Shown here piece after piece: positions 1,656 to 38,090 of a stretch of DNA of 64,000 nucleotides. The notes below the pieces were generated by a model, which saw nothing but the letters and a program-made list of their open reading frames with translations, had not been told where the DNA came from and made no database searches. The stretch is from Terriglobia bacterium (GTDB lineage Bacteria > Acidobacteriota > Terriglobia > Versatilivoradales > Versatilivoraceae). The translations under genes were made by a program, and so were the position numbers. Every line of letters starts with the position of its first letter. Within the stretch, counting starts at the first letter, position 1. The DNA lies in the NCBI GenBank assembly GCA_046331665.1, contig JAXLQK010000019.1, forward strand, positions 20,692-84,691, read 5' to 3'.

Positions 1656-1985
1656 ATGGGACCTTCGGCATTCGAGACAACCGGAGGCAAAGGAAAGTTT
1701 ATGGCAAGCGGGAGCAATGCCGTTCGCACCCATGAAGATTCAAAGCTTCTCATTAAATGGACGAACGTCGACGGAATTCAGATGACCGAGCAATCCGTCA
1801 CGAATGACATCAGTGAAAATGGGATCTCATTCTATCTCAAGACCCCTGTTTGGTTGGACACACACCTCATCATCACGATTGGATCCAGTGAGCTATTCGG
1901 CCGATTGCAAACACTAAATGGGAAGGTTGTTCGCATCCAAACGGATCCTTCTGGCAATCAACTGGTTGGCGTACGGTTTGATTAG
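1656..1985 (+). CDS. PilZ-domain (c-di-GMP binding) protein
   Basis: A D-I-S-E-N-G motif (DxSxxG) sits in a beta-barrel-like sequence ending GKVVRIQTDPSGNQLVGVRF. The likelier start is the internal ATG at 1701, which has AAGGAAAG 4 nt upstream. Confidence 0.55.
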   Translation: MGPSAFETTGGKGKFMASGSNAVRTHEDSKLLIKWTNVDGIQMTEQSVTNDISENGISFYLKTPVWLDTHLIITIGSSELFGRLQTLNGKVVRIQTDPSGNQLVGVRFD

Positions 1986-17669: not shown

Positions 17670-17993
17670 TTAGCTCAACACCCAGTTCTTTGGAGTCTCC
17701 ACGAATCGGATGCCAACCTTCTTTTTCATCTCACTCTCGTCCATCCAAACGGCCTTAACTTCGGCGTTACATATGAACTTTCCCTGAAAAGCCGTTAACT
17801 TGACGATGCTACCCAACTTCAAGATGTGGTCGACTAAAACGCAGGCCCCAAGCTTGCTGACGTTTTCCGTCGTGGTTTCCTCAATGAAATGCTGATCGTC
17901 AGCGTCAGCCCCTTCGAGGACTACGGGGATAGCCAGGAGGACACGAGTCTCCTTTCGTTTTACCCTCCAGAAATCCACACGTTCTCCAGTCAA
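17670..17993 (-). CDS. PilZ-domain protein, last gene of the dnaK operon
   Basis: RKETR (RxxxR) and ENVSKLGA (DxSxxG-like) motifs are present, with the typical C-terminal GIRF. The start overlaps the stop of the upstream ATPase gene. Confidence 0.6.
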   Translation of the reverse strand: MTGERVDFWRVKRKETRVLLAIPVVLEGADADDQHFIEETTTENVSKLGACVLVDHILKLGSIVKLTAFQGKFICNAEVKAVWMDESEMKKKVGIRFVETPKNWVLS

Positions 17994-17995
17994 GG

Positions 17996-18742
17996 TCAGT
18001 ATTGGTATTGTGCTTGTTTAACTTTGAGTCGGAAGTCAAAACCTTCGATACGAATCACTTTGCACATCTCGTACAGCCGGGAGCGCAAACGTGTCCCGAT
18101 ACGGTCTTCGAGACTTTCTTCCTTTGACAATACGGTCCCATTGGAAAGCGTTTTGGGTTCCCTTAGTTGGTCGTCAAAGTTTGTGGTGATGATGGTTGTT
18201 AAGCGCCGATTATATCTGGAATTAATGATATAAGAGACCGTCTCCCGAACCCATTCGGTAGGTCGTTCAGCCCCCAGGTCATCTAGCACCAGCAGATCAC
18301 TGTTTAAGACGGGCTCAAGAATTTCCAGCTCGGAGGACTGAGAAACAGGGTTATAGGAATTCTGAATCCGTTTGAGCAACTCACGAAAATCACAGAACAA
18401 ACCCCGAGCCCCCACCTTCTGAATGATTTCCCGCAAAATCGACACAGCCAAGTGGGTCTTGCCCACACCGCAAGGCCCCAGAATCAACAGGCCACAATCC
18501 ACCAGAGGATATTCTTCTACAAACTTCAGCGCGGCCGCCTTAACCAGTTTAAGGCGTTCCGTGATCGGATTAAAGTTTTCGAATGAACAATGCTCATAGC
18601 GTGCGGGGAGATGAGCAAGTTCAATCAATCTCTCTAATTTTCGTTGCTGCACACAGGCACAAGGAACGACCCCCTGCGGTTCGGCATCTTCGAGATACCG
18701 CCAACCGGTCCCTCCACAGATTTGACATTCTGCAGTTAGCAT
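17996..18742 (-). CDS. DnaC/IstB-like AAA+ ATPase (putative helicase-loader-type protein) with an N-terminal four-Cys motif
   Basis: Walker A LILGPCGVGKTHLAVSI and Walker B LLVLDDLG are present. The N-terminus carries CQICGGTGW...VPCACV, which is zinc-ribbon-like. It starts 9 nt downstream of hspR. Confidence 0.65.
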   Translation of the reverse strand: MLTAECQICGGTGWRYLEDAEPQGVVPCACVQQRKLERLIELAHLPARYEHCSFENFNPITERLKLVKAAALKFVEEYPLVDCGLLILGPCGVGKTHLAVSILREIIQKVGARGLFCDFRELLKRIQNSYNPVSQSSELEILEPVLNSDLLVLDDLGAERPTEWVRETVSYIINSRYNRRLTTIITTNFDDQLREPKTLSNGTVLSKEESLEDRIGTRLRSRLYEMCKVIRIEGFDFRLKVKQAQYQY

Positions 18743-18751
18743 CGCTTCGAG

Positions 18752-19141
18752 TTAACGATCCAATCGAACCATCTTAGAGGGGATGGTTCGCACCAAGGCA
18801 TTTTGAGCGTCGGATCGAGGCTCCGACATGCGCCCAGAAAGCTCCGTTTGAATTAGTTTCATAAACTGGCGCATTTCTTTTTGCATTTCTTCAACCCGGG
18901 CCCGCATGTTCAAAATGATTTCCACTCCGGCCAAGTTTACACCCAGGTCGCGAGTTAAGTTCAAAATCAATTCCAGCCGTTTCAAATCCTCATCGGTGTA
19001 AAGACGGGTATTTCCTTCAGAACGGGAAGGCTTCAGGAGCCCCTGACGTTCGTAAAGACGCAAGGTTTGTGGATGAACGTCGTAAGTCTTGGCCACATTA
19101 CTGATCATGTAAGCCGCTTTGTCCTTCTTCTTCCTGACCAT
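18752..19141 (-). CDS. hspR: MerR-family heat-shock repressor HspR
   Basis: A MerR HTH (YMISNVAKTYDVHPQTLRLYERQGLLKPSRSEGNTRLYTDEDL) and a coiled-coil C-terminus. It lies directly downstream of dnaJ, as in hspR operons. Confidence 0.8.
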   Translation of the reverse strand: MVRKKKDKAAYMISNVAKTYDVHPQTLRLYERQGLLKPSRSEGNTRLYTDEDLKRLELILNLTRDLGVNLAGVEIILNMRARVEEMQKEMRQFMKLIQTELSGRMSEPRSDAQNALVRTIPSKMVRLDR

Positions 19142-19153
19142 CGTGCAAGCCCC

Positions 19154-20257
19154 TTATTGACCAAACAAACCCTGGCGAGGGTTCTCCGGATTCAACCGAC
19201 CCAACTCCCGAAGCAGCTCTTTGCTCCGCTCATCCACTAGTTTGGGTGTAACGACGCGTACTTCAACATATTGGTCCCCGTGGGTTGGGGCCCTCAAAGA
19301 GGGAGCCCCCTTCTCTCTCAATCGGAATTTCTGTCCGCTCTGGGTCCCGGGAGGTATTTTCAAAAGAGCACGACCTTCCACGGTGGGGACTTCAATCTTG
19401 GCGCCCAGAGCAGCTTCAGTCAGTGTGATGGGAATCTTGCAGTAGATGTTGTCCCCCTTTCTCTCAAAAAAGGGGTGGCTGCTCACTGTGGTCACAATAT
19501 AAAGATCCCCGGGAGTCCCTCCATTCATTCCAAAATCTCCCCGGCCGGCAAAACGAATTCGTGAACCAGTTTGGACTCCTGCCGGAATCTTGATTTCGAG
19601 GCTTTCTGACTTTTGAACTCGCCCTTCGCCACGGCATTGGGAACAAGGTGTCGTGACTTTCCCGCTTCCACCACATTGAGGACAGGTGGTCGAAAACCGC
19701 ATCTTCCCCTTTAGCTGTTCCACCTTGCCGGATCCCCGGCAATAAGGGCAATCCTGATCTTTTCCTTCGCCGCTCACCCCTTTTCCATGGCAGGTAGGGC
19801 AAATCTCACGACGCAAGTAGCTGATGCGGGTCTGCAGTCCCTTCAACGCGTCGTCAAAGCTTATCGAAACCTGGTACTCCAAGTCATCCCCTTTCTGAGG
19901 ACGGTTTGCGGAACGGTGCCCGCCAAAAAGCTGGGAGAAGAGATCCCCAAACCCTGAGCCTCCTATATTGGAGAAATCGAATCCTTCGAAATCCACTTGC
20001 GGCCCAGGTTGCGGTCCTGGGCCGGGTCGGAAGTTATCAGAATAGGTTCCGTAGTTGTCATAGATTTCCCGCTTTTTTGGATCGCTCAGGACCTCATAGG
20101 CCTCGGAAATCTTCTTAAACCGCTCCTCAGCGCGCTTGTCCCCCGGATTGACATCAGGGTGATGCTTGCGTGCAAGTTTCCGGTACGCTTTCTTAATGGC
20201 TTCTGGAGAGGCGTTTCTCGGGATATTCAAAAGTTGATAATAGTCTTCCGTTGCCAT
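19154..20257 (-). CDS. dnaJ: Molecular chaperone DnaJ
   Basis: J domain with HPD ([30 protein letters not shown]). Four CxxCxGxG zinc-finger repeats and the C-terminal domains are present. Confidence 0.95.
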
Positions 20258-20423
20258 ATTCGTGGATTTAATTGTTGGACAGACTGGGGAGTTTCTCGGG
20301 AAAGCGCGGCTGAGGCCCCTAGCATCCGCACACCCTGACTTTTAAGCTCAAGGGGTAGAGCATGCCTGAATTGACAAATCCTCCCAGGGGACTCGAAGGT
20401 CCCCTGGCAAGTCATTGGCAGAA

Positions 20424-22340
20424 TCACTTCTTCTTCTCGTCAACTTCGTCATAATCTGCGTCGATGATTTCCCCTTCAGCAGGTTTCGAATTCGCCGAAG
20501 ATCCCGTTCCTGCAGCCCCCGCTGCGGCCCCCGGCTGGGCCCCTGCCTGCTTGTAAAGGACATCCGCCATTTTGTGAGTCGCGGAGGTGAGCCGCTCCAC
20601 GGCCGCGTTGATGCGATCAGCCCCGCCCTCTGCAATGGCGCGCTTGCATTCTTCCAAAGCGGATTCAATAGATTTGGCATCGGCCTCGGAGACCTTTTCC
20701 CGATTCTCTTTGAGCAGCTTCTCCGTGTTATAAACCAGGGAATCGGCGCGATTCTTGGCTTCGACTTCCTCACGATATTTCCGGTCCTCCTCAGCATGGG
20801 ACGATGCATCCTTGGTCATACGGTCAATCTCATCCTTGTTTAAGCCGCTCGTTGCAGTGATCGTGATCTTTTGCTCTTTGGAAGTCGCCATGTCTTTCGC
20901 CGACACATTGACGATCCCATTGGCGTCAATATCGAAGGTCACTTCGATTTGAGGAACTCCTCGAGGGGCAGGAGGGATCCCTACCAAATGAAATTTCCCC
21001 AGTGTTCGGTTGTCCCGAGCCATGCTTCGTTCCCCTTGAAGCACGTGGACTTCTACCGATGTCTGGTTGTCCGCAGCCGTTGAAAAGATTTCGCTCTTCC
21101 GCGTCGGGATCGTCGTATTTCTGTCAATCAGCTTCGTGAACACACCCCCCAGAGTTTCAATCCCCAGGGACAATGGCGTCACATCCAGGAGGAGAAGATC
21201 TTTGACATCCCCTGCTAATACCCCTGCTTGAACCGCCGCTCCAATGGCTACGACTTCATCAGGATTGACTCCCTTGTGAGGCTCTTTCTTGAAGAGATCG
21301 CGCACAATTTGCTGAACTCTGGGGATGCGCGTCGACCCCCCAACCAACACGACTTCGTCAATCTCTTCCGGCTTCACTCCGGCATCGGAAAGCGCCTGCT
21401 TACAGGGATTCGCACTCCGCTGCAGGATGTCTTCTACCAACGCTTCGAATTTCGCACGAGTCAGCTTCATGCTCAAGTGACGCGGACCCGAGGCATCGGC
21501 AGTGATAAAGGGTAAATTGATCTCTGTTTCCAGGACACTGGAAAGTTCCATCTTCGCTTTTTCGGCTGCTTCTTTGAGACGTTGCAGTGCCATCTTGTCC
21601 TTGGAGAGATCAATGCCTTGATCCTTGATAAATTCATCAACGATCCAATCCATCACCCGTTGATCAATATTGTCTCCCCCGAGATGGGTGTCGCCATTCG
21701 TGGACTTCACCTCGACAACGCCTTCTCCTACCTCCAGGATCGAGATGTCGAAGGTTCCCCCGCCAAAATCGTAGACCGCAATCGTTTCATCCTTTTTCTT
21801 GTCCAATCCGTAGGCAAGCGCAGCCGCCGTCGGCTCATTGACGATGCGCAAGACCTCCAACCCAGCAATCTTGCCGGCATCTTTGGTGGCCTGCCTCTGA
21901 GAATCGTTGAAATAAGCGGGCACAGTAATGACCGCCTTGGTCACTTTCTCCCCCAAGTATTCTTCTGCAGCCTGCCTCATCTTTTGCAGGATCATTGAAG
22001 AGATCTCTGGAGGACTATATTCCTTTCCCATAACAACAACTCGAGCATCGCTGTTGGATGCCCGGGCCACCCGGTATGGAACGATCTTCATTTCTTCATT
22101 TACTTCATCATATTTTCGTCCCATGAACCGCTTGATCGAGTACACTGTGTTTTCGGGATTGGTCACCGCCTGACGCTTGGCAACCTGGCCCACCAGCCTT
22201 TCCCCATTCTTTGTAAAGGCTACGACCGACGGCGTCGTGCGACTCCCTTCAGGATTCGTGATGACTATGGGTTCCCCACCCTCCATCACCGCAACCACCG
22301 AGTTCGTTGTACCCAAATCTATTCCGATAATCTTACTCAT
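20424..22340 (-). CDS. dnaK: Molecular chaperone DnaK (Hsp70)
   Basis: [22 protein letters not shown] and the full Hsp70 architecture. 638 aa. Confidence 0.97.
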
Positions 22341-22415: not shown

Positions 22416-22444
22416 AATATAATATCTGAGTATGTCATTGTCAA
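22416..22444 (-). promoter_or_regulatory. Sigma70-type promoter for the dnaK operon (TTGACA-N17-TATATT on the minus strand), overlapped by an inverted repeat
   Basis: The minus strand reads TTGACA (22444-22439), a 17-nt spacer, then TATATT (22421-16), about 70 nt upstream of the dnaK ATG. The inverted repeat CTGAGTATG (22426-34) / CATACTAAG (22460-68) spans the spacer and -35. An ACTCAAG HAIR half-site lies at 22496-22502. Confidence 0.5.
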
Positions 22445-26154: not shown

Positions 26155-26586
26155 TCATTTCCGTTTTTCCCTAAATAGCTCACGAAGGACTTCCCCAGTT
26201 CCTTGGGTCAGATCCAGACTGTCGAGAGAGTCGATGTCAAAGTACGCCGCCTCAGCAGCATCCGAAGCTGGACGGGGGGTACCTGATTGGATTTCGCAAA
26301 GGTAGTCGATAATGACATAGTGAAAGGAGATCTTCCCGCGGGAATCCCGAAAGATGCGCTCCAAAACCTTGCCCACCCGGATGGGGCAAATTTGGATTTG
26401 CAATTCCTCCCTGAGCTCCCGTTTAACAGCCTCTTCCAGCGTTTCACCCAAGTCAACGGCACCACCTGGAATCGACCATTTCCCTTGAGCAGGCGGCTTA
26501 CCGCGTTTTACGAGCAGCACTTGATTTCCTTTGAATATGATTCCTCCCACCGCACAAACGGGAGCACGTGGATAGACTCGACTCAT
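26155..26586 (-). CDS. NUDIX hydrolase
   Basis: Nudix box GGAVDLGETLEEAVKRELREELQI. Confidence 0.85.
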   Translation of the reverse strand: MSRVYPRAPVCAVGGIIFKGNQVLLVKRGKPPAQGKWSIPGGAVDLGETLEEAVKRELREELQIQICPIRVGKVLERIFRDSRGKISFHYVIIDYLCEIQSGTPRPASDAAEAAYFDIDSLDSLDLTQGTGEVLRELFREKRK

Positions 26587-26756
26587 CGTTCCCTCGATTC
26601 GTATCAGCTTCGTTCCTCTGGTTCGGATCCATGAACCCCTCGACTCTGATGATCCTCATCTTTTTTTGTGACAAAAGATTTTTCTATCTTCGCATGTTTG
26701 CCGTTCAGTTCGCTTATAATTTCCGGAAGGAGAATTCTCAACTTGAGGGAGTGCGG

Positions 26757-27431
26757 ATGGGGAAATCATATCGACGGTCAGGCTTGACGAAGAAGCAGTT
26801 TCAACTCTTCTCTTTCGTTCAGTCCTTTCTCGAGGAGGAAGGATATTGCCCGAGTATCGAAGAAATTGGAAAAAGCCTCGGACTCTCCTCGACGGCCACC
26901 GTTCATAAACATCTCAGTAACCTGGAAGCCAAAGGGTATCTCCGTCGTGAACGAAATCGGAGCCGATCGATTGAGATCCTGCAGGCTCTGCCCAGCCCTC
27001 CGACCAGGGACCTCCCAGGAAGGCGGGAACTCACCCCCGATGGCCGGCAGATGTTGTCCCTCCCCCTGAAGGGCCGAATTGCCGCTGGAAAGCCGTTAGA
27101 GGCTGTCTCCGGCGATGAAACCCTCTCCCTAAGTGAGTTCTCCGAAAATGAAAGGGTTTATGTGTTGCAGGTGAAAGGCAACTCCATGGTCGATGATCAT
27201 ATTTGTAATGGCGACTATGTGGTTGTTGAAAGAGTTTCGACAGCCAATCCGGGTGATACGGTGGTGGCACTGTTAGGTAACCATGAGGCCACTCTCAAGA
27301 AATATTTTCGTGAGAAAGGCAGTCTTGTTCGGCTGCAGCCAGCCAATACGTCGATGCAGCCGCTTTTCGTTCCGGAGCAAGAGGTGAAAATACAGGGGCG
27401 TGTCATCGCGGTCTTACGAAAGTATCAGTGA
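26757..27431 (+). CDS. lexA: LexA repressor (S24 peptidase)
   Basis: Winged HTH (FQLFSFVQSFLEEEGYCPSIEEIGKSLGLSSTATVHKHL). The cleavage and catalytic region is VKGNSM...GDTVVALLGNHEATLKKY. The ORF-track start at 26568 is an out-of-context extension. ATG 26757 has GAGGGA 6 nt upstream. Confidence 0.85.
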   Translation: MGKSYRRSGLTKKQFQLFSFVQSFLEEEGYCPSIEEIGKSLGLSSTATVHKHLSNLEAKGYLRRERNRSRSIEILQALPSPPTRDLPGRRELTPDGRQMLSLPLKGRIAAGKPLEAVSGDETLSLSEFSENERVYVLQVKGNSMVDDHICNGDYVVVERVSTANPGDTVVALLGNHEATLKKYFREKGSLVRLQPANTSMQPLFVPEQEVKIQGRVIAVLRKYQ

Positions 27432-27454
27432 CGAGACGGAAGAGAGGCTTTAGG

Positions 27455-28630
27455 ATGGAGGAAGGAATCCGCAAAGTCATTTTTCATGTGGATATGGATG
27501 CGTTTTTTGTTTCCGTTGAAGAGCTCTTTGACCCTGGCTTAAAAGGAAAAGCGGTCATTGTCGGTGGGAAGCCGGATCAGAGAGGGGTGGTTTCTGCCGC
27601 CTCCTATGAAGCCCGGAAATTTGGGATTCATTCCGCCATGCCTTTAGTGACTGCGAAGCGACTCTGTCCTCACGCAATTTTTCTCCCGGGGCGGCATAAG
27701 ACATACGCGCAATATTCGGAGTGGATCCGTCACCTCCTGGAATCTTACAGCCCGATTGTGGAAATGGTCTCCATTGATGAGGCCTACTTGGACCTCACCG
27801 GATTCCAGCGCACTTACGGTCATCCCCAAGCCTTGGCCGAACGTTTGCGAAATCATTTGCTGGGTGAGACCGGGCTCAGCGCCTCGGTGGGGATATCGGC
27901 AAGCAAACTTGTCTCGAAAGTGGCTTCGGATTTGGCTAAACCCAAGGGAGTCCTTTACGTTCTTCCGGGTCATGAGGCAGCCTTCCTGGGGTCCCTGGGT
28001 GTCGGGAAATTACCGGGAGTAGGAAAGGTGACTCAGCAAAGACTCCGCGAACTGGGGATCTCACGGGTTGGGCAACTGGCGGAAATGGGGACAAACTCCC
28101 TTCGAGAGTTATTTGGAAGGTGGGGAGAGTCTCTCTATCAGAAATCCCAAGGAATGGATACGGCCCATTTCGAGTTTCGTAATGAACCCCAGTCGATCGG
28201 CCACGAACACACCTTTGACCGGGACACAGGAGATTCCGAGGAGATCCAGAAAACGATCGCCATCTTAGTCGACAAATGCTGCCATCGTTTGCGGAAACAT
28301 CGAATGTTTGCCAAAACGGTGAGGTTAAAAATACGTGATCAGAAATTCTATACCCAAGTAAAAGCCCTAACCTTGCAGGAATCGACACAGCTGGATGTAG
28401 AAATCCTGCATGGCGCCTTGACGCTTCTCGAACGGCATTGGAAGCAGGGCACCAAACTTCGCTTGGTGGGGGTTTCCTTGTCAGGACTCGATTTCAATGC
28501 AGGTCAAGAAGCGCTTTTTTCCCAAGACCGTCGAGACAAGATGCTGCGGCTCCATCAGGCAGCCGATCGGGTGCGAAAGCGCTACGGGTTCGAAGCAATC
28601 CACTCCGCCCGAACATCGAAAGAACGGTAA
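27455..28630 (+). CDS. dinB: DNA polymerase IV (Y-family, DinB)
   Basis: IFHVDMDAFFVSVE...SIDEAYLDLT is the Y-family palm. The little-finger domain is present. ATG 27455 has a GAGAGG RBS and lies 23 nt after the lexA stop. Confidence 0.85.
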   Translation: MEEGIRKVIFHVDMDAFFVSVEELFDPGLKGKAVIVGGKPDQRGVVSAASYEARKFGIHSAMPLVTAKRLCPHAIFLPGRHKTYAQYSEWIRHLLESYSPIVEMVSIDEAYLDLTGFQRTYGHPQALAERLRNHLLGETGLSASVGISASKLVSKVASDLAKPKGVLYVLPGHEAAFLGSLGVGKLPGVGKVTQQRLRELGISRVGQLAEMGTNSLRELFGRWGESLYQKSQGMDTAHFEFRNEPQSIGHEHTFDRDTGDSEEIQKTIAILVDKCCHRLRKHRMFAKTVRLKIRDQKFYTQVKALTLQESTQLDVEILHGALTLLERHWKQGTKLRLVGVSLSGLDFNAGQEALFSQDRRDKMLRLHQAADRVRKRYGFEAIHSARTSKER

Positions 28631-28631
28631 G

Positions 28632-30017
28632 ATGAAAAGAACCGCCATTGAAATCGTCAGGAAGCTCCGTCAGGCAGGTTTCCAGGCCTACTGGGTAGGC
28701 GGGTGCGTTCGCGATTTGGTGATGGGCCACTCCCCCACCGACTACGATATTGCCACGAGCGCAACCCCCGAGGAGCTATTTCATTTGTTCCCGCGAGGAC
28801 TGGCCGTGGGAGCCCAATTCGGGGTGGTCATCATCCCCGAAGAAGGGAATCTCTATGAAGTTGCCACGTTTCGCTCCGAAGAGAAATACACCGACGGACG
28901 ACACCCCGATCGTGTGCGGTATACGCTTGATCCGCGCGAGGACGTGCAGCGAAGGGATTTCACCATCAACGGTCTCCTTTATGATCCCTTGGAGGAAGAG
29001 GTCATTGACTATGTCGGGGGGCAGTCAGACATCCACTCGCGCATCATTCGAACCATTGGAGATCCTTGGCGCCGGTTTGAAGAAGACCGGCTCCGCTTGA
29101 TTCGGGCCGTGCGTTTCGCTGCTCGTTTTGACTACCAAATTGAGACCAATACCTGGCAGGCCCTGTCTGAACTTGCCCCGAATATCGAGCAAGTTAGCCC
29201 GGAAAGAATTCGTGATGAACTGATCAAGATTTTGACTCAGGGCTATGCGGCACGAGGCATGACTCTCTTGGACTCTTGCGGTCTACTGCGCATCATCCTC
29301 CCGGAAATAACCCATTTGCATGGAGTGGAGCAGCCACCGGAATTTCACCCCGAGGGCGATGTTTGGATCCATACGATCCTGATGCTCGGATTGATGGATC
29401 AGCGGACTCTTGAAGGAAGAAGGGAGCCCAGCTCGGACTCTCTGGAGGAATCGGGACCGAACCCGCCCTCTTCTTTGAGTTCTTATCCGTCCCCCACTTT
29501 GGCCCTGGGCGTATTGCTCCATGACATTGGTAAGCCGGAAACGTTTGAGCGCTCGGATCGCATTCGCTTTAACAACCATCCCGAAGTAGGCTCCCGCATG
29601 GCCGTGGGGATCTGCGAACGCCTCCGCTTTCCCACCAGGCAGGTCGCAAGGATCTCTGAACTCGTTCGGGATCATCTCAGATTCAAAGATGTCCCCCAGA
29701 TGAAACTGTCAACCCTGAAACGCTTCTTACGAAGGGACGGGTTTGCCGAACATCTGGAATTGCATCGCTTGGACTGCCTGTCCAGCCATCGCAATCTGGC
29801 AACCTGGCAGTTCCTTACAGAAAAAATGAACGAGATGGGACCCGAGGAAACCCGGCCCAAACCTCTTCTTTCTGGTAATGATCTGATACGGCTTGGATTC
29901 CTCCCGGGGCCTAGGTTCAAGGAGATTCTTAAATCGGTTGAGGACGCCCAGTTGGATAATGTGGTGAGCTCCGAGGAAGAAGCGACAAAATTTGTCCTCG
30001 AGCACTTTTCTAGGTAG
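28632..30017 (+). CDS. cca: CCA-adding tRNA nucleotidyltransferase (Pol-beta NTase head plus HD domain)
   Basis: GGCVRDLVMG...DYDIAT head motif and an HD domain (HDIGKP...). ATG 28632 is 1 nt after the dinB TAA. The ORF-track N-terminal extension from 28497 overlaps dinB and is rejected. Confidence 0.8.
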   Translation: MKRTAIEIVRKLRQAGFQAYWVGGCVRDLVMGHSPTDYDIATSATPEELFHLFPRGLAVGAQFGVVIIPEEGNLYEVATFRSEEKYTDGRHPDRVRYTLDPREDVQRRDFTINGLLYDPLEEEVIDYVGGQSDIHSRIIRTIGDPWRRFEEDRLRLIRAVRFAARFDYQIETNTWQALSELAPNIEQVSPERIRDELIKILTQGYAARGMTLLDSCGLLRIILPEITHLHGVEQPPEFHPEGDVWIHTILMLGLMDQRTLEGRREPSSDSLEESGPNPPSSLSSYPSPTLALGVLLHDIGKPETFERSDRIRFNNHPEVGSRMAVGICERLRFPTRQVARISELVRDHLRFKDVPQMKLSTLKRFLRRDGFAEHLELHRLDCLSSHRNLATWQFLTEKMNEMGPEETRPKPLLSGNDLIRLGFLPGPRFKEILKSVEDAQLDNVVSSEEEATKFVLEHFSR

Positions 30018-30029
30018 GCCAATAGAACA

Positions 30030-30938
30030 ATGCCGGAACTGCCTGAAGTCGAAACCATCCGTCGCGGTCTGGAAAAGAAGGCTCTTCAGAAGACCATTGA
30101 ACGGGTTGAAGTCCGCTGTCGCAAGATTATTCTTCGTCCCCAGGCAAGCCAGCTGGCCGTAGAGCTGGCGGGGCAGACCATCGAGGAAATTCGTCGTCGC
30201 GGAAAATTCCTGGTCCTTGGGACCCGGGACTTCATCTTGCTCATTCATCTCGGAATGACGGGACAGCTCACCTATTGGGATAAGACTGAAAAAGATGCTG
30301 AAGCGTTTTCCATCAATCCTTTGACGGGACTGCAACAGGCTCATCAGCACGCGATCGATAAGCATACCCATATCATCATCTATTTCACGGACGGAAATGC
30401 CCTGCATTACCGGGACGTTCGCCAGTTTGGAAAATGGCGTCTTTATGCAAAGGAGGAATTCGGTGAGGCTCAAGAGTTCTGGCGGCTTGGACTTGAGCCC
30501 TTTTCCCCCGAATATACGTGGAAGGGTTTCGAAGCCCGCTTTGGAAAACGCAACCTCCGAATCAAATCCCTGCTGCTGGACCAGGGGTTTGTGGCAGGGG
30601 TAGGGAATATCTATGCCGACGAGGCCTTATTTGAAGCGAGGGTACACCCAGAGCGGCGCGTCAGTGGTCTTTCTCAAGATGAGAAATTGAAACTCTTTAA
30701 GGCAATTCCCAAAGTGCTCCGGAGAGGGATCCACTTCGGGGGAACCACTTTTCAAAGCTATTTGAATGCGGAGGGAAAAGCGGGAGGCTTTCAGGAGTAT
30801 CTGAATGTCTACGGCCGGGAGCGTCAGCATTGCCGTCGATGCGAGTCGCAAATTCAGCGGCTGGTCATCAGTCAGCGCTCCAGTCATTTTTGCCCAAACT
30901 GCCAGCCTCGAAGAAGATCACGCACCTTGCGAAAGTGA
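30030..30938 (+). CDS. mutM: Formamidopyrimidine-DNA glycosylase
   Basis: The N-terminus is MPELPEVE. An H2TH domain and a C-terminal CxxC...CxxC zinc finger are present. Confidence 0.9.
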   Translation: MPELPEVETIRRGLEKKALQKTIERVEVRCRKIILRPQASQLAVELAGQTIEEIRRRGKFLVLGTRDFILLIHLGMTGQLTYWDKTEKDAEAFSINPLTGLQQAHQHAIDKHTHIIIYFTDGNALHYRDVRQFGKWRLYAKEEFGEAQEFWRLGLEPFSPEYTWKGFEARFGKRNLRIKSLLLDQGFVAGVGNIYADEALFEARVHPERRVSGLSQDEKLKLFKAIPKVLRRGIHFGGTTFQSYLNAEGKAGGFQEYLNVYGRERQHCRRCESQIQRLVISQRSSHFCPNCQPRRRSRTLRK

Positions 30939-34403: not shown

Positions 34404-37400
34404 TCAGGGAAGAAGTTCCAGCAGAATCGCCCTTATCGAAGGAATGATTTCCGAGTTAAGTAACCCCGCGGTTTGTACCCGGAGAGCCCCCGAAGGCATG
34501 ACTGACGTCTCCGGATGAGAAGAGACAAATTCAACCACCCGCTGCGCCTGCACAGGGGTCTTTTCATGGAACTTAATAGAGATAGTGTCTCGTTCTCTTT
34601 CAATACTTTGGACCAAAGCTCTCTGAGCCACCAACCGCAAACGAACAAAATCGATCAGGTTTACAACTTCTTTCGGTACTCCCCCATAACGGTCTTCCAA
34701 TTCAATAAGTAATTCATCCATTTCCCGTTCATGTTTCAATGAAGAGATTCTCTTGTAAATACTTAACCGCTGACGTTCGTCGGCAATATAATCTGTAGGA
34801 ATTTTCACCGGAATCTTGAGGTTGATCTGAGTTTGAATCTCAGGTACGACCTCATTGCCCTGCAATTCTTCTATTGTCCTCTCCAAGATTTGGCAATAGA
34901 AGTCGAAGCCAAGGGCATTGATATGACCATGCTGCTCTCCGCCCAAGAGGTTTCCCGCACCGCGAAGCTCCAAATCAAGCGCCGCTACCTTAAACCCTGA
35001 TCCCAGTTCGCTGAATTCCTTTAGAGCCGCCAAGCGTTGGCGCGCTACTCCGGTCAGCGCTTTGTCCGGGGGCGTCAGGAGGTATGCGTAGGCTCTGCGG
35101 TTAGAACGTCCTACTCTCCCACGCAATTGATAAAGCTGGGCCAACCCAAATCGATCCGCACGATTTACAATAAGAGTATTGACCAAGGGGATGTCCAAAC
35201 CATTTTCTATAATCGTAGTAGAAACTAAGACATCTGCCTCATGCCTTACAAACTTCAGCATGGTTGCCTCTAATTCCTTTTCCCCCATTTGACCGTGCCC
35301 TACAAGGATTCGGGCCTTAGGGCAGAGTTTGCTGATCATCGAAGCAACGGAGTAGATGGATAGCACTTTGTTATGTACAAAATAAACCTGCCCTCCACGG
35401 CTCAATTCCTGCTCAATGGCCGCCTGAATCACCTGTTTATTAAATGGTACTACAAATGTCTGAATAGACAGTCTATCGCGTGGTGCGGTTTCTATGACCG
35501 ACATATCTCTCATTCCCATTAACGACATATGTAGTGTTCTGGGAATTGGTGTGGCGGTCATAGTCAGGGTATCCACGTTAATTTTCAATTGTTTCAGCTT
35601 TTCCTTATGGCTTACGCCAAACTGCTGTTCTTCGTCAACGATCAACAATCCGAGATCCCTGTACTGGACATCTTTGGACAATAGCCGATGCGTTCCGATG
35701 ATAATATCAACCTGGCCGGCGTCTATTTTCTTGGTGATTTCCACTTGATCCTTTGGAGTTCGGAATCGGCTCAACATTTCGATGTTCATTGGAAACGCGT
35801 TGAAGCGCTGCTTGAACCTGAGGTAGTGTTGATAGGACAGAACGGTGGTGGGAGCCAGGACTGCCACCTGCTTTCCATCAAATACGGCCTTAAAGGCCGC
35901 TCTCATTGCGACCTCTGTTTTTCCAAACCCAACATCCCCGCAAAGCAGCCTGTCCATGGGGACTTCGGACTCCATGTCTTTATAAACATCCTGAATGGCG
36001 GAAGCCTGGTCCGGAGTTTCCACGAATTCAAAGACATCTTCAAACTCTTTGTGCCAATGTCCTTGTGGGGAAAAGGCATAACCCGGTGATATTTTTCTGC
36101 CCGCATATAATTTGAGCAAATCGTCAGCCATGTCCCGCAAGGACTTCTTGACCCGGCTCTTCGTTTTCACCCAGGTTGTTCCACCAAGTTTGTCCAATTG
36201 TGGGCGCGCCCCTTCGGCACTGCTGTATTTCTGAACTAGGTCCAACCTTTCCAGGGGAACATAGATCTTGTCGTCCCCCAGATAAGTGATAACCATGAAT
36301 TCACGCCCAGCGCCTTCGGCAAACATCTGCTTCACCCCAAGAAATCGTCCAATTCCATGGTCAATGTGGACCACATGATCTCCAGGCTTCAATTCTCTTA
36401 AGTCCGAGATGAACGTCGTGCTCTTTTGCTTCGAGCGTACCGGCCTGTCGAGTAACTCCACTTCATCGAAGACATCTGTTTCCCCAAGGATGAGGATGCC
36501 TTCGAGTCTAACCTCAAATCCTTCATATACTTCTCCACATACTACGAAAGTAGCTAATTGAACTTCACTCAGGCCCGGGGAGGTTCCCTCTTTCTGGGAT
36601 TGAAAAGCAGGACTTACGTCCAAATCGTACTCCTTGAGAATCTCATAGACTCTCTCTGCTTTTCCCAAGGTGCCTTGGACCAGCACTTGAACCGTACCTT
36701 GTTGCGCTCCACGCTCGATATCCCGAACTAGTTCTCTTAGATTCCCGTGGTACTTCCTTGAGGGACGGATATCGCAAACAATTCGCACGGTATCTTTCCC
36801 CTCTTGAAATGGACTGCTGTCATCCGCGGATTCAGAATCTGGACTTACTTCGTGTGGCCTCTCCCTTCGCAGGACATCTGTAGCCAATTCATTTTCATGC
36901 TGAGGCAAGCCCTCGCTCTTCCGGGGATGTAACGCGTCGTGATCTCTCCGGGTGGATCGGGGCTCTTTTTGAAACAAGGAATCCTCTTGGAAGGTGCCCA
37001 ACTGATCCAGCAGAACTGAGGAGTGCCGGGAAGTTAAGCCGGACAGCTCCTCAAAGCTAATGAAGAGCTCTTCTATGGCGGCGGATGGAATGCCCCGAGA
37101 TCTCAATGCCGCCTGCTCTTTGAGACATTTCTCGTACCAGTGCTGGTAATCTGATTGGAGATCCAACGGTTCATCGATAACCAAAAAGAACTCGGGAATG
37201 AAATCGAACACGGTGTGCGGAAGTGTCTGGGTCATGGGGAGGGCGTATTCGACCCCTTGAAAAAATTCCCCGTTCAGGGCACAGGTGACCTGATGATCGA
37301 GGAAATCCTGTGAGGTCTCGTTCCCCAGCCTCAATTTGGCCTGCTCTCCCCATTCCTTGAGAGCAGAGGGATCCAGGAGGATTTCCCGCATTGGGACACA

Positions 37401-38090
37401 GAGCACTTCTTGCACGGGGCCAATGGACCTCTGCGATTTGACTGAAAACTCCCGTAAGGACTCGACTTCATCCCCGAAAAATTCGATTCGACACGGATTC
37501 TCGGAATCAGGGGGAAAAACATCCAAAATCCCGCCTCTTACGGAGTAGGAACCATGGCTGTTGACGGGCTCCTCATGAACATAACCGGCGGCCAGCAGGT
37601 AGTTGGTGATCGTCTGTAGAGAGTATTCGGTACCAACCTTCAGACGGGGTACAGCAGTAAAGATCTCGCGAAGGTTTGGGACCCGGCTGAGAACCGCGGT
37701 CAGTGGACAAAGCAGGATGTCAACGGTCGACTCAAAGACCCTCCATAAAGAGAGAGCCCTTTCCTCCAAAACCTCCGCATGAGGGGATAGACCACTATAG
37801 GCATCAGGTTCGAGCGCAGGAAAGACGGACAACCTCGCTCCATTTCGGTTGGAAAATACATCAAGATAGAAGGCTGCTGCGTTACGGAGAGAGTCGAGAT
37901 TGGAACTATCCCTTCCAATGTAGAGGATGGGTTTCTTGAGCTGATGATGGAGCCCTGCCAGGACCGCCGGTTTTGCTGATGGGGTAATCCCCGTCAAGAC
38001 GAATCTTGAGGCACCGGATTCCAACTGACGGAGAATCTGATCAATCCCCGTTGCCCGAATTAGTTTTTCAGTCCAGTCCCGCGATGACAT
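34404..38090 (-). CDS. mfd: Transcription-repair coupling factor Mfd
   Basis: 1228 aa. UvrB-homology N-terminus, DEAD-box SF2 translocase motifs (LLCGDVGFGKTEVA, DEEQQFG), and a TRCF C-domain. Confidence 0.95.
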   Translation of the reverse strand: MSSRDWTEKLIRATGIDQILRQLESGASRFVLTGITPSAKPAVLAGLHHQLKKPILYIGRDSSNLDSLRNAAAFYLDVFSNRNGARLSVFPALEPDAYSGLSPHAEVLEERALSLWRVFESTVDILLCPLTAVLSRVPNLREIFTAVPRLKVGTEYSLQTITNYLLAAGYVHEEPVNSHGSYSVRGGILDVFPPDSENPCRIEFFGDEVESLREFSVKSQRSIGPVQEVLCVPMREILLDPSALKEWGEQAKLRLGNETSQDFLDHQVTCALNGEFFQGVEYALPMTQTLPHTVFDFIPEFFLVIDEPLDLQSDYQHWYEKCLKEQAALRSRGIPSAAIEELFISFEELSGLTSRHSSVLLDQLGTFQEDSLFQKEPRSTRRDHDALHPRKSEGLPQHENELATDVLRRERPHEVSPDSESADDSSPFQEGKDTVRIVCDIRPSRKYHGNLRELVRDIERGAQQGTVQVLVQGTLGKAERVYEILKEYDLDVSPAFQSQKEGTSPGLSEVQLATFVVCGEVYEGFEVRLEGILILGETDVFDEVELLDRPVRSKQKSTTFISDLRELKPGDHVVHIDHGIGRFLGVKQMFAEGAGREFMVITYLGDDKIYVPLERLDLVQKYSSAEGARPQLDKLGGTTWVKTKSRVKKSLRDMADDLLKLYAGRKISPGYAFSPQGHWHKEFEDVFEFVETPDQASAIQDVYKDMESEVPMDRLLCGDVGFGKTEVAMRAAFKAVFDGKQVAVLAPTTVLSYQHYLRFKQRFNAFPMNIEMLSRFRTPKDQVEITKKIDAGQVDIIIGTHRLLSKDVQYRDLGLLIVDEEQQFGVSHKEKLKQLKINVDTLTMTATPIPRTLHMSLMGMRDMSVIETAPRDRLSIQTFVVPFNKQVIQAAIEQELSRGGQVYFVHNKVLSIYSVASMISKLCPKARILVGHGQMGEKELEATMLKFVRHEADVLVSTTIIENGLDIPLVNTLIVNRADRFGLAQLYQLRGRVGRSNRRAYAYLLTPPDKALTGVARQRLAALKEFSELGSGFKVAALDLELRGAGNLLGGEQHGHINALGFDFYCQILERTIEELQGNEVVPEIQTQINLKIPVKIPTDYIADERQRLSIYKRISSLKHEREMDELLIELEDRYGGVPKEVVNLIDFVRLRLVAQRALVQSIERERDTISIKFHEKTPVQAQRVVEFVSSHPETSVMPSGALRVQTAGLLNSEIIPSIRAILLELLP

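Follow-up and report, generated by a model that had tools for sequence, protein, structure and literature searches.

The 64,000-nt stretch of DNA analyzed here (the window; contig JAXLQK010000019.1 of a Terriglobia bacterium, phylum Acidobacteriota) carries on its minus strand dnaK, dnaJ, hspR, a gene for an AAA+ ATPase of the DnaC type, and pilZ (Table 1), which we interpret as an autoregulated heat-shock operon of the HspR type with a helicase loader as its conserved cargo. We put a probability of about 0.6 on this reading, in which the loader would be induced by stress and would act in reloading the replicative helicase. What is new is an HspR/dnaK operon with DnaC-type cargo; cargo-bearing dnaK operons as such are already known. 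The initial annotation, made from the letters of the window, had described five co-directional genes, and the open reading frame (ORF) listing and profile searches place all five where it had put them. The gaps that it gave, 166 nt between dnaK and dnaJ, 12 nt between dnaJ and hspR, and 9 nt between hspR and the ATPase gene, are correct, whereas its overlap of 1 nt between the ATPase gene and pilZ is actually a gap, of 2 nt if pilZ begins with the first TTG and of 17 nt if it begins with the GTG at 17978.

The ATPase resembles helicase loaders both in sequence and in predicted fold, which bears out its initial description as a helicase-loader-type AAA+ protein. The sole Pfam family above threshold is IstB_IS21 (62.8 bits), but in a phmmer search of the PDB the best match is DnaC of Aquifex aeolicus (3ECC; E 5e-31), with 37-45% identity over the AAA+ domain; next come a DnaI-like primosome component of streptococcal origin (7e-19), DnaC of E. 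coli (3e-14) and DnaI, and the IS21 helper IstB is the weakest (2e-7). For an AlphaFold2 model of the protein (predicted local distance difference test score, pLDDT, 86.4), Foldseek ranks 3ECC first, at a template-modelling score of 0.86 normalised on the target, and its ranks 1-4 are all DnaC structures. The Walker A motif GPCGVGKTHLA and the N-terminal four-cysteine knuckle of the earlier description are read at residues 89-99 (GPCGVGKT at 89-96) and at C6-x2-C9-x-G-x-G ... C28-x-C30, respectively, the latter being a predicted zinc knuckle that is modelled as a Cys4 knuckle plus a helix with pLDDT 71-91. Walker B is LVLDD at 150-154 (D153/D154), sensor I is TTN188, and an arginine cluster is formed by R214, R218, R220 and R222; these motifs and Walker A vary little or not at all among 50-81 orthologues, and C6, C9, C28, C30 and C52 are invariant among 81 orthologues. 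Residues 6-13 of the knuckle (C-x2-C-x-G-x-G), which are followed by the C-x-C pair, also have the consensus of the zinc-finger repeats of DnaJ, encoded two genes upstream.

Profiles of phage and firmicute loaders extend this likeness to the N-terminus. The match to PHROG 50, "DnaC-like helicase loader," scores 199.8 bits and its alignment starts at residue 3, so that the knuckle is included, and the alignment to PRK06835, a firmicute DnaC-like profile, begins at residue 5 and likewise covers the zinc-knuckle region. Against the curated NCBIfam models the protein falls below the cutoffs for DnaC (PRK07952, 59.4 against 357), DnaI (PRK08939, 85.2 against 228), PRK08116, which is the nearest model (153.6 against 189), and the IS21 helper (IS21_help_AAA, 72 bits against 200), and it therefore represents a distinct subfamily within the DnaC/DnaI clade of AAA+ initiators. 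An identical protein is annotated in NCBI as "ATP-binding protein."

The association of this gene with heat-shock genes is conserved in a substantial part of the phylum. Relatives were sampled as one genome per GTDB species; 155 were found and the best 80 kept, nearly all of them metagenome-assembled genomes of Acidobacteriota, with a few assigned elsewhere, e.g. to Acidimicrobiia or Dormiibacterota, and ten additional, more distant representatives of the family were sampled as well, with synteny at the related loci called by tblastn. The ATPase gene is carried by 80 of the 80 species genomes retrieved, and in ~26 of them it lies just 3' of dnaK, dnaJ or hspR, usually 7-14 nt away, so that the hspR-ATPase synteny for which the initial annotation had suggested a check is indeed kept in relatives. 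The order dnaK-(hsp20)-dnaJ-hspR-ATPase occurs in 19 loci (L002-L010, L012, L014, L015, L017-L021, and the distant L050 and L052), in a few of which the contig stops short of dnaK. Shorter versions are found in L011 (dnaK-hspR-ATPase) and in L013, L016 and L022, where the ATPase gene directly follows dnaK, starting 14 nt past the dnaK stop codon in L016, and in the deep-branching L039 a fragment of HspR lies upstream of the ATPase gene. No more than 14 nt separate the ATPase gene from the gene upstream (hspR, or dnaK in L016) in 15 of the 22 syntenic loci.

A related arrangement recurs in the class Vicinamibacteria, with a sigma factor gene inserted before the ATPase gene: the order is dnaK-dnaJ-hspR-sigma-ATPase in L086 and dnaJ-hspR-sigma-ATPase-htrA in L088. 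A third contig, L090, which belongs to another lineage, has dnaK-sigma-ATPase. The inserted sigma factor belongs to group 2 and is RpoS/SigB-like, and in the Vicinamibacteria loci its stop codon overlaps the start of the ATPase gene. These operons mean that the association of the ATPase with stress genes covers at least two classes of Acidobacteriota. In a neighbor-joining tree of the ATPase the dnaK-linked loci form one large clade plus three isolated occurrences, with clades that match the synteny groups, and pairwise identities of the ATPase correlate with those of DnaK (r = 0.92, 171 pairs). The gene has therefore been inherited vertically together with the operon, as a resident, "domesticated" gene of Acidobacteriota.

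Outside the heat-shock loci, the ATPase gene keeps company with genes of DNA metabolism. In Terriglobales, eight loci run LysR, DUF1376-like, ATPase, with the DUF1376-like gene adjoining the ATPase gene upstream in all eight (5 nt away in L053); the product of this gene has a cysteine-rich C-terminus and a Pfam score of 22.8 bits, which is under the cutoff. We take the pairing to recall prophage replication modules such as ydaU-ydaV of the E. coli Rac prophage. In 41 loci of Terriglobales and Acidobacteriaceae, a GIY-YIG+UVR nuclease resembling the N-terminal half of UvrC, or Cho, is encoded behind the ATPase gene in the same orientation, mostly no more than ~100 nt away, and a DinB_2 gene is often next; among the DUF1376-like loci, the nuclease and DinB_2 genes come immediately after the ATPase gene in L043 and L053 and lie 2-7 kb downstream in others. 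The Terriglobales arrangement has the look of a phage replication pair that was domesticated and joined to a repair module. In Acidobacteriaceae a divergent HU gene stands upstream of the ATPase gene, and in L092 (1575..7850) a relative with 41% identity forms part of a parA-parB-RepA(RPA)-ATPase-dnaN module beside a phage-type integrase, which looks like the replication module of a plasmid, an integrative and conjugative element, or a secondary replicon. Since the DUF1376-like, UvrC-like nuclease, HU and L092 contexts all concern DNA transactions, they support a biochemical activity of the helicase-loader type for the ATPase. The interval between the HU and ATPase genes also contains a conserved non-coding stretch in L051-L081, at about -400 to -60 from the ATPase start (e.g. 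L056 7600..7940), which has no match in Rfam and may be a leader of HU or a shared regulatory region. This stretch yields spurious ORF clusters on both strands, and the clusters c7, c11, c8 and c21 upstream of the ATPase gene in Acidobacteriaceae were rejected as artefactual reading frames that overlie the divergent HU gene and its conserved leader.

The putative regulator is most like HspR, its top two NCBIfam matches being HspR models, and hspR keeps its position behind dnaJ in more than 20 loci. On the operon strand there is a sole good promoter of the sigma-70 type, TTGACA-17-TATATT, whose spacer carries an ACTCA(G) element (22431..22427), so that the site reads TTGACA-N7-ACTCAGA. Of 19 related loci, 18 have the pattern TTGACA-N7-ACTCA(G/A)N-TATTATATT at 101-109 nt upstream of the dnaK ATG, with one occurrence of the TTGACA-N7-ACTCA motif per locus; the N7 is variable among these loci and ACTCA is almost invariant. 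The departures are ATTCA in L013 and L022, both of which have no hspR at the locus, and GCTCA in L012, which has kept hspR. The motif recurs as TTGAC-N8-GCTCA ahead of the Vicinamibacteria operons and in L050. We propose TTGACA-N7-ACTCA as a candidate HspR operator that lies over the -35/-10 region and resembles the HspR-associated inverted repeat (HAIR) in its geometry, with its left arm merged into the -35 box, and on these grounds control of the operon by HspR is a well-supported inference. No CIRCE-type repeat was seen by eye in the sequence upstream of dnaK, for which no dedicated search was run. The 5' untranslated region of dnaK, checked as a possible RNA thermometer, folds no better than shuffled sequences (z = +0.6), and at the gathering threshold Rfam has zero matches in the window and three related loci.

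A scan for promoters and terminators detected neither a sigma-70-like promoter nor a convincing terminator from dnaJ to pilZ, and thus nothing that would separate hspR from the ATPase gene. The co-transcription of hspR, the ATPase gene and pilZ, which the initial annotation had called almost certain, is accordingly favored for hspR and the ATPase gene, but less so for pilZ, which follows the ATPase gene in three relatives only, in one of them (L008) behind a hairpin. Downstream of dnaK there is a stem-loop with a 9-bp stem and a poor U-tract, which appears in both the minimum free energy and the centroid folds; the fold of the whole dnaK-dnaJ spacer is insignificant (z = -0.7), and only this local hairpin is notable. 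L002, L003 and the Versatilivoraceae loci have hairpins at the same position with differing sequences, and the dnaK-dnaJ spacers of relatives are GC-rich, with no AT-rich promoter or promoter-like element. The stem-loop is probably a partial terminator or an mRNA stabilizer that would set the ratio of DnaK to DnaJ. In L004 and L006-L009 (e.g. L006 5821..6264) a gene for Hsp20 (alpha-crystallin) lies between dnaK and dnaJ, and the spacer of the window may be a remnant of the loss of hsp20 or else an insertion site for it.

In the mechanism that we favor, one strong promoter would drive dnaK, the stem-loop past dnaK would attenuate or stabilize the transcript, and read-through would express dnaJ, hspR and then the ATPase gene, the last in close translational coupling to hspR, with pilZ added in the lineage of the window. 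HspR would sit on the HAIR-like element, probably together with DnaK, its co-repressor in Streptomyces and Mycobacterium, and would leave it once unfolded proteins titrate DnaK, so that all genes of the operon, including that of the ATPase, would be induced by stress. With its zinc-knuckle N-terminus the ATPase may bind DnaB, the replicative helicase, which it may load or reload on DNA, and the ATPase may have been retained in a stress operon because replication forks need rebuilding after proteotoxic or DNA stress. DnaK and DnaJ may in turn release the helicase from the ATPase loader, as they do for lambda P, and PilZ would be a late, lineage-specific passenger. If the linkage is functional, the operon offers a genetically tractable example of a helicase loader inside a heat-shock regulon, and replication restart or pausing would be tied to DnaK across a phylum of abundant soil bacteria; if it is neutral, only an acidobacterial variant of the dnaK operon has been described.

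The nearest described arrangement is the cbpA-hspR-"helicase" operon of Helicobacter pylori, a tricistronic and rapidly heat-induced unit that HspR represses by binding over the -35/-10 region of its own promoter, with hrcA-grpE-dnaK located elsewhere. The two operons have in common the order of a J-domain co-chaperone, hspR and a DNA-related nucleoside triphosphatase in one unit, as well as the location of grpE outside it. They differ in that dnaK heads the acidobacterial operon, in that a full type-I DnaJ takes the place of CbpA, and in that pilZ is appended in the window; moreover, the third gene in H. pylori is only a "putative DNA helicase," whereas the acidobacterial product belongs to the DnaC-type AAA+ loaders and has a zinc knuckle. 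The initial annotation had not recognized the arrangement as a described one, and in the library searched there was indeed no publication naming both HspR and DnaC, but the H. pylori operon is a parallel to it. In the actinobacterial operon dnaK-grpE-dnaJ-hspR of Streptomyces and Mycobacterium, hspR is likewise the promoter-distal regulator of dnaK, and HspR regulates its own operon with DnaK as co-repressor. The HAIR operator of these bacteria is an inverted repeat whose left arm also resembles a -35 box, though it reads CTTGAGT-N7-ACTCAAG where the acidobacterial element reads TTGACA-N7-ACTCAG, and the acidobacterial operon differs further in having no grpE and in carrying DnaC-like ATPase and PilZ cargo after hspR.

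Other known systems match single parts of the arrangement. Aquifex DnaC (3ECC/3EC2) is similar in its ~240 aa, short N-terminal domain, Walker A and B motifs, sensor I and arginine residues, but the acidobacterial gene is embedded in a heat-shock operon. The lambda P protein is a helicase loader that needs DnaK-DnaJ-GrpE for release of the helicase and has no sequence relationship with AAA+ loaders; the acidobacterial loader-like gene is in comparison tied to dnaK and dnaJ both physically and in its evolution, and, going by this linkage, the ATPase may depend on DnaK in the same way. The heptacistronic hrcA-grpE-dnaK-dnaJ-yqeT-yqeU-yqeV operon of Bacillus subtilis likewise has non-chaperone cargo past dnaJ (prmA, rsmE, mtaB), which differs in being methyltransferase- and MiaB-like and in standing under HrcA/CIRCE control.

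The initial annotation had drawn attention to the absence of grpE, in whose place it saw the ATPase and PilZ. A tblastn search with GrpE of E. coli detected no grpE in the 64-kb window or at any of the 80 related loci (best E = 0.64), and neither GrpE nor DUF721/DciA was among the 25 window ORFs scanned with Pfam, with ~24 of the larger ORFs lying outside that scan. The absence itself is therefore confirmed, but because grpE is missing from the operon throughout the clade there was no replacement event; it is a clade-wide and unremarkable trait of the operon, and HspR operons without grpE are already known, the H. pylori operon being an example.

Several points weigh against the favored reading. 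In about two thirds of the acidobacterial genomes sampled, the ATPase gene lies away from heat-shock genes, and the linkage is therefore dispensable. The HspR protein of the window falls just short of the NCBIfam equivalog cutoff (101.9 against 105 bits), as does its Vicinamibacteria orthologue (103.4 bits). There is no canonical HAIR (CTTGAGT-N7-ACTCAAG) in the window at up to three mismatches, and the best site resembling it is mismatched at 5 of 14 positions, so that the control by HspR claimed by the initial annotation is inferred from one conserved promoter that carries a HAIR-like element rather than demonstrated. Co-transcription and heat induction are likewise read from spacing and conservation only, and the hairpin past dnaK could end most transcripts, in which case an unrecognized promoter, for example of a non-sigma-70 type, would serve the genes downstream.

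A further difficulty comes from DciA. According to Brezellec et al. 2016, no genome combines domesticated dna[CI] with dciA, and Aquificae are a group with dnaC domesticated and DciA absent. In the supplementary table of that survey there are one PF01695 protein and one DciA in Granulicella tundricola and in Terriglobus saanensis, eight and one in Solibacter, and two and none in A. capsulatum, and a later survey likewise has DciA homologues in acidobacteria. The tabulated PF01695 entries of acidobacteria would correspond to the ATPase studied here, to judge by its single-copy orthologues in genomes of Acidobacteriaceae assembled from metagenomes. The housekeeping loader may thus be DciA, and while the membership of the ATPase in the DnaC family stands, the replication-initiation function first attributed to it is uncertain. 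A resident DnaC-type gene that seems to coexist with DciA also strains the reported exclusivity, and either the rule has exceptions or this subfamily took on a stress-specific job. A bolder extension of the operon model, which we regard as possible but at clearly less than even odds, is that there are two helicase systems, with DciA acting in routine initiation and a phage-derived DnaC-type loader placed in an HspR/DnaK stress regulon (joined in Vicinamibacteria by a group-2 sigma factor) for reloading or restart dependent on DnaK and DnaJ. Were this so, the strict exclusivity of dciA and dna[CI] would be broken, and proteostasis would be linked directly to the reassembly of the replisome.

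Among the alternatives to a stress-induced loader, the strongest, though rather unlikely, is that the linkage is neutral and historical: the ATPase would have an ordinary part in replication or restart, its gene would lie last in the dnaK operon by chance, and its expression would be essentially constitutive, by read-through or from an internal promoter. Tight packing of unrelated genes on one strand is found elsewhere in the window, where the genes for PBP1A and a GT4 glycosyltransferase overlap by 4 nt, as well as in L003, where an unrelated PSCyt/DUF1553 gene lies ~9 nt past pilZ; most Terriglobales and Acidobacteriaceae have the ATPase gene in other contexts; and the B. subtilis dnaK operon has unrelated cargo of its own. 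On the other hand, the association with heat-shock genes has outlived the loss of dnaJ and/or hspR (L011, L013, L016 and L022), and in two classes the ATPase is also found with hsp20, a group-2 sigma factor and HtrA. Survival through such rearrangements, together with stress-related neighbors in two classes, is more than neutral drift usually preserves.

The ATPase might also act as a brake, with surplus protein made under stress sequestering or inhibiting DnaB, so that replication would pause until proteostasis returns and DnaK/DnaJ dissolve the complex. The evidence from family and motifs would be the same as for a loader, excess E. coli DnaC is known to inhibit DnaB, and with DciA also present in the phylum the ATPase could have a regulatory instead of a housekeeping role; but the DNA-transaction neighbors (the L092 replicon module, the DUF1376-like gene, the UvrC-like nuclease and HU) suggest constructive work on DNA, and we consider a brake improbable. 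Slightly less probable again is a non-replicative AAA+ accessory that remodels HspR, the neighboring sigma factor or clients of DnaK, with the DnaJ-like CxxCxGxG knuckle binding the clients. Such a role would suit the recurrence of heat-shock and regulatory neighbors across several lineages, the resemblance of the knuckle to the zinc-finger motif of DnaJ, and scores below all of the NCBIfam DnaC, DnaI and IstB equivalog cutoffs. It is difficult to reconcile with a sequence and fold that lie squarely in the DnaC/DnaI/DnaA initiator clade, with a knuckle that aligns to phage and firmicute DnaC-like profiles (PHROG 50 and PRK06835), and with DNA-related neighbors in other lineages. The initial annotation had also raised the possibility of a transposon fossil, a decayed IstB helper of IS21, which is suggested by the name of the sole Pfam family above threshold. 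We reject this reading as having a negligible chance of being correct, given the far weaker PDB match to IstB than to DnaC (2e-7 against 5e-31), the low score against IS21_help_AAA, and the presence of the gene in every species genome retrieved, with stable synteny and in co-divergence with DnaK; neither IstA nor any other transposase was found beside the gene in the ORF listing and Pfam scan of the locus.

The last gene of the operon in the window encodes a single-domain PilZ protein, as first described, with a Pfam score of 30.2 bits (cutoff 22.5) and intact c-di-GMP-binding motifs, RxxxR as RKETR and NxSxxG as NVSKLG, from which it is predicted to be a receptor of cyclic di-GMP (c-di-GMP). 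A search of the PDB with this protein gave no informative sequence relative. The GTG start at 17978 is preceded by a GGAG Shine-Dalgarno sequence and is common to the orthologues of L002 and L003; L002, L003 and L008 have kept both the motifs and the start codon, and these are the only three of the 22 syntenic loci in which a PilZ orthologue follows the ATPase gene. In L008 the hairpin ahead of pilZ is terminator-like and has a T-run. The linkage of pilZ is therefore a recent, local and lineage-specific addition. A second single-domain PilZ ORF at 1656..1985 on the plus strand of the window (109 aa, Pfam 28.9 bits) has no sequence relationship with that of the operon, which suggests that PilZ genes are common in this genome, and L086 has genes for PilZ and for RarA/MgsA 3-4 kb downstream.

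Table 1. Positions of the operon features in the window and of the loci with other ATPase contexts
Feature	Sequence	Position	Strand	Details
dnaK (Hsp70)	window	20424..22340	-	638 aa; Pfam HSP70 898 bits; NCBIfam DnaK 1040 bits (cutoff 648)
dnaJ (type I, four-CXXCXGXG zinc-finger domain)	window	19154..20257	-	367 aa; Pfam DnaJ (J domain), DnaJ_CXXCXGXG, DnaJ_C; NCBIfam DnaJ_bact 401 bits (cutoff 377)
hspR-type MerR-family repressor	window	18752..19141	-	129 aa; Pfam MerR_1 66.8 bits
DnaC-type AAA+ ATPase (Aquifex-DnaC-like helicase-loader family)	window	17996..18742	-	248 aa
PilZ protein, single domain	window	17670..17978 (GTG) or 17670..17993 (TTG)	-	102 aa (GTG) or 107 aa (TTG)
Sigma-70-type operon promoter TTGACA-17-TATATT	window	22416..22444	-	promoter scan 11/12
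Stem-loop CCAGGGGAC-N6-GUCCCCUGG	window	20384..20407	-	16 nt past dnaK stop codon
Sigma-containing locus	L086	1566..6783
Sigma-containing locus	L088	3513..6837
Sigma-containing locus	L090	1800..5779
DUF1376-like/ATPase loci	L031, L035, L037, L042, L043, L047, L048, L053	e.g. L053 7469..10518

The operon is flanked upstream by the divergent PBP1A gene and downstream by a PSCyt/DUF1549/DUF1553 gene and a DUF1501 gene, and no tRNA genes were found in the 64-kb window. Elsewhere in the window, at 26568..30938 on the plus strand, lexA, dinB (Pol IV, IMS family), a gene for a CCA-adding/polyA-polymerase protein with an HD domain, and mutM follow one another with short or overlapping junctions in what looks like an SOS-type unit; the longest ORF for lexA has a long N-terminal extension. 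The gene for Mfd lies at 34404..38090 on the minus strand.

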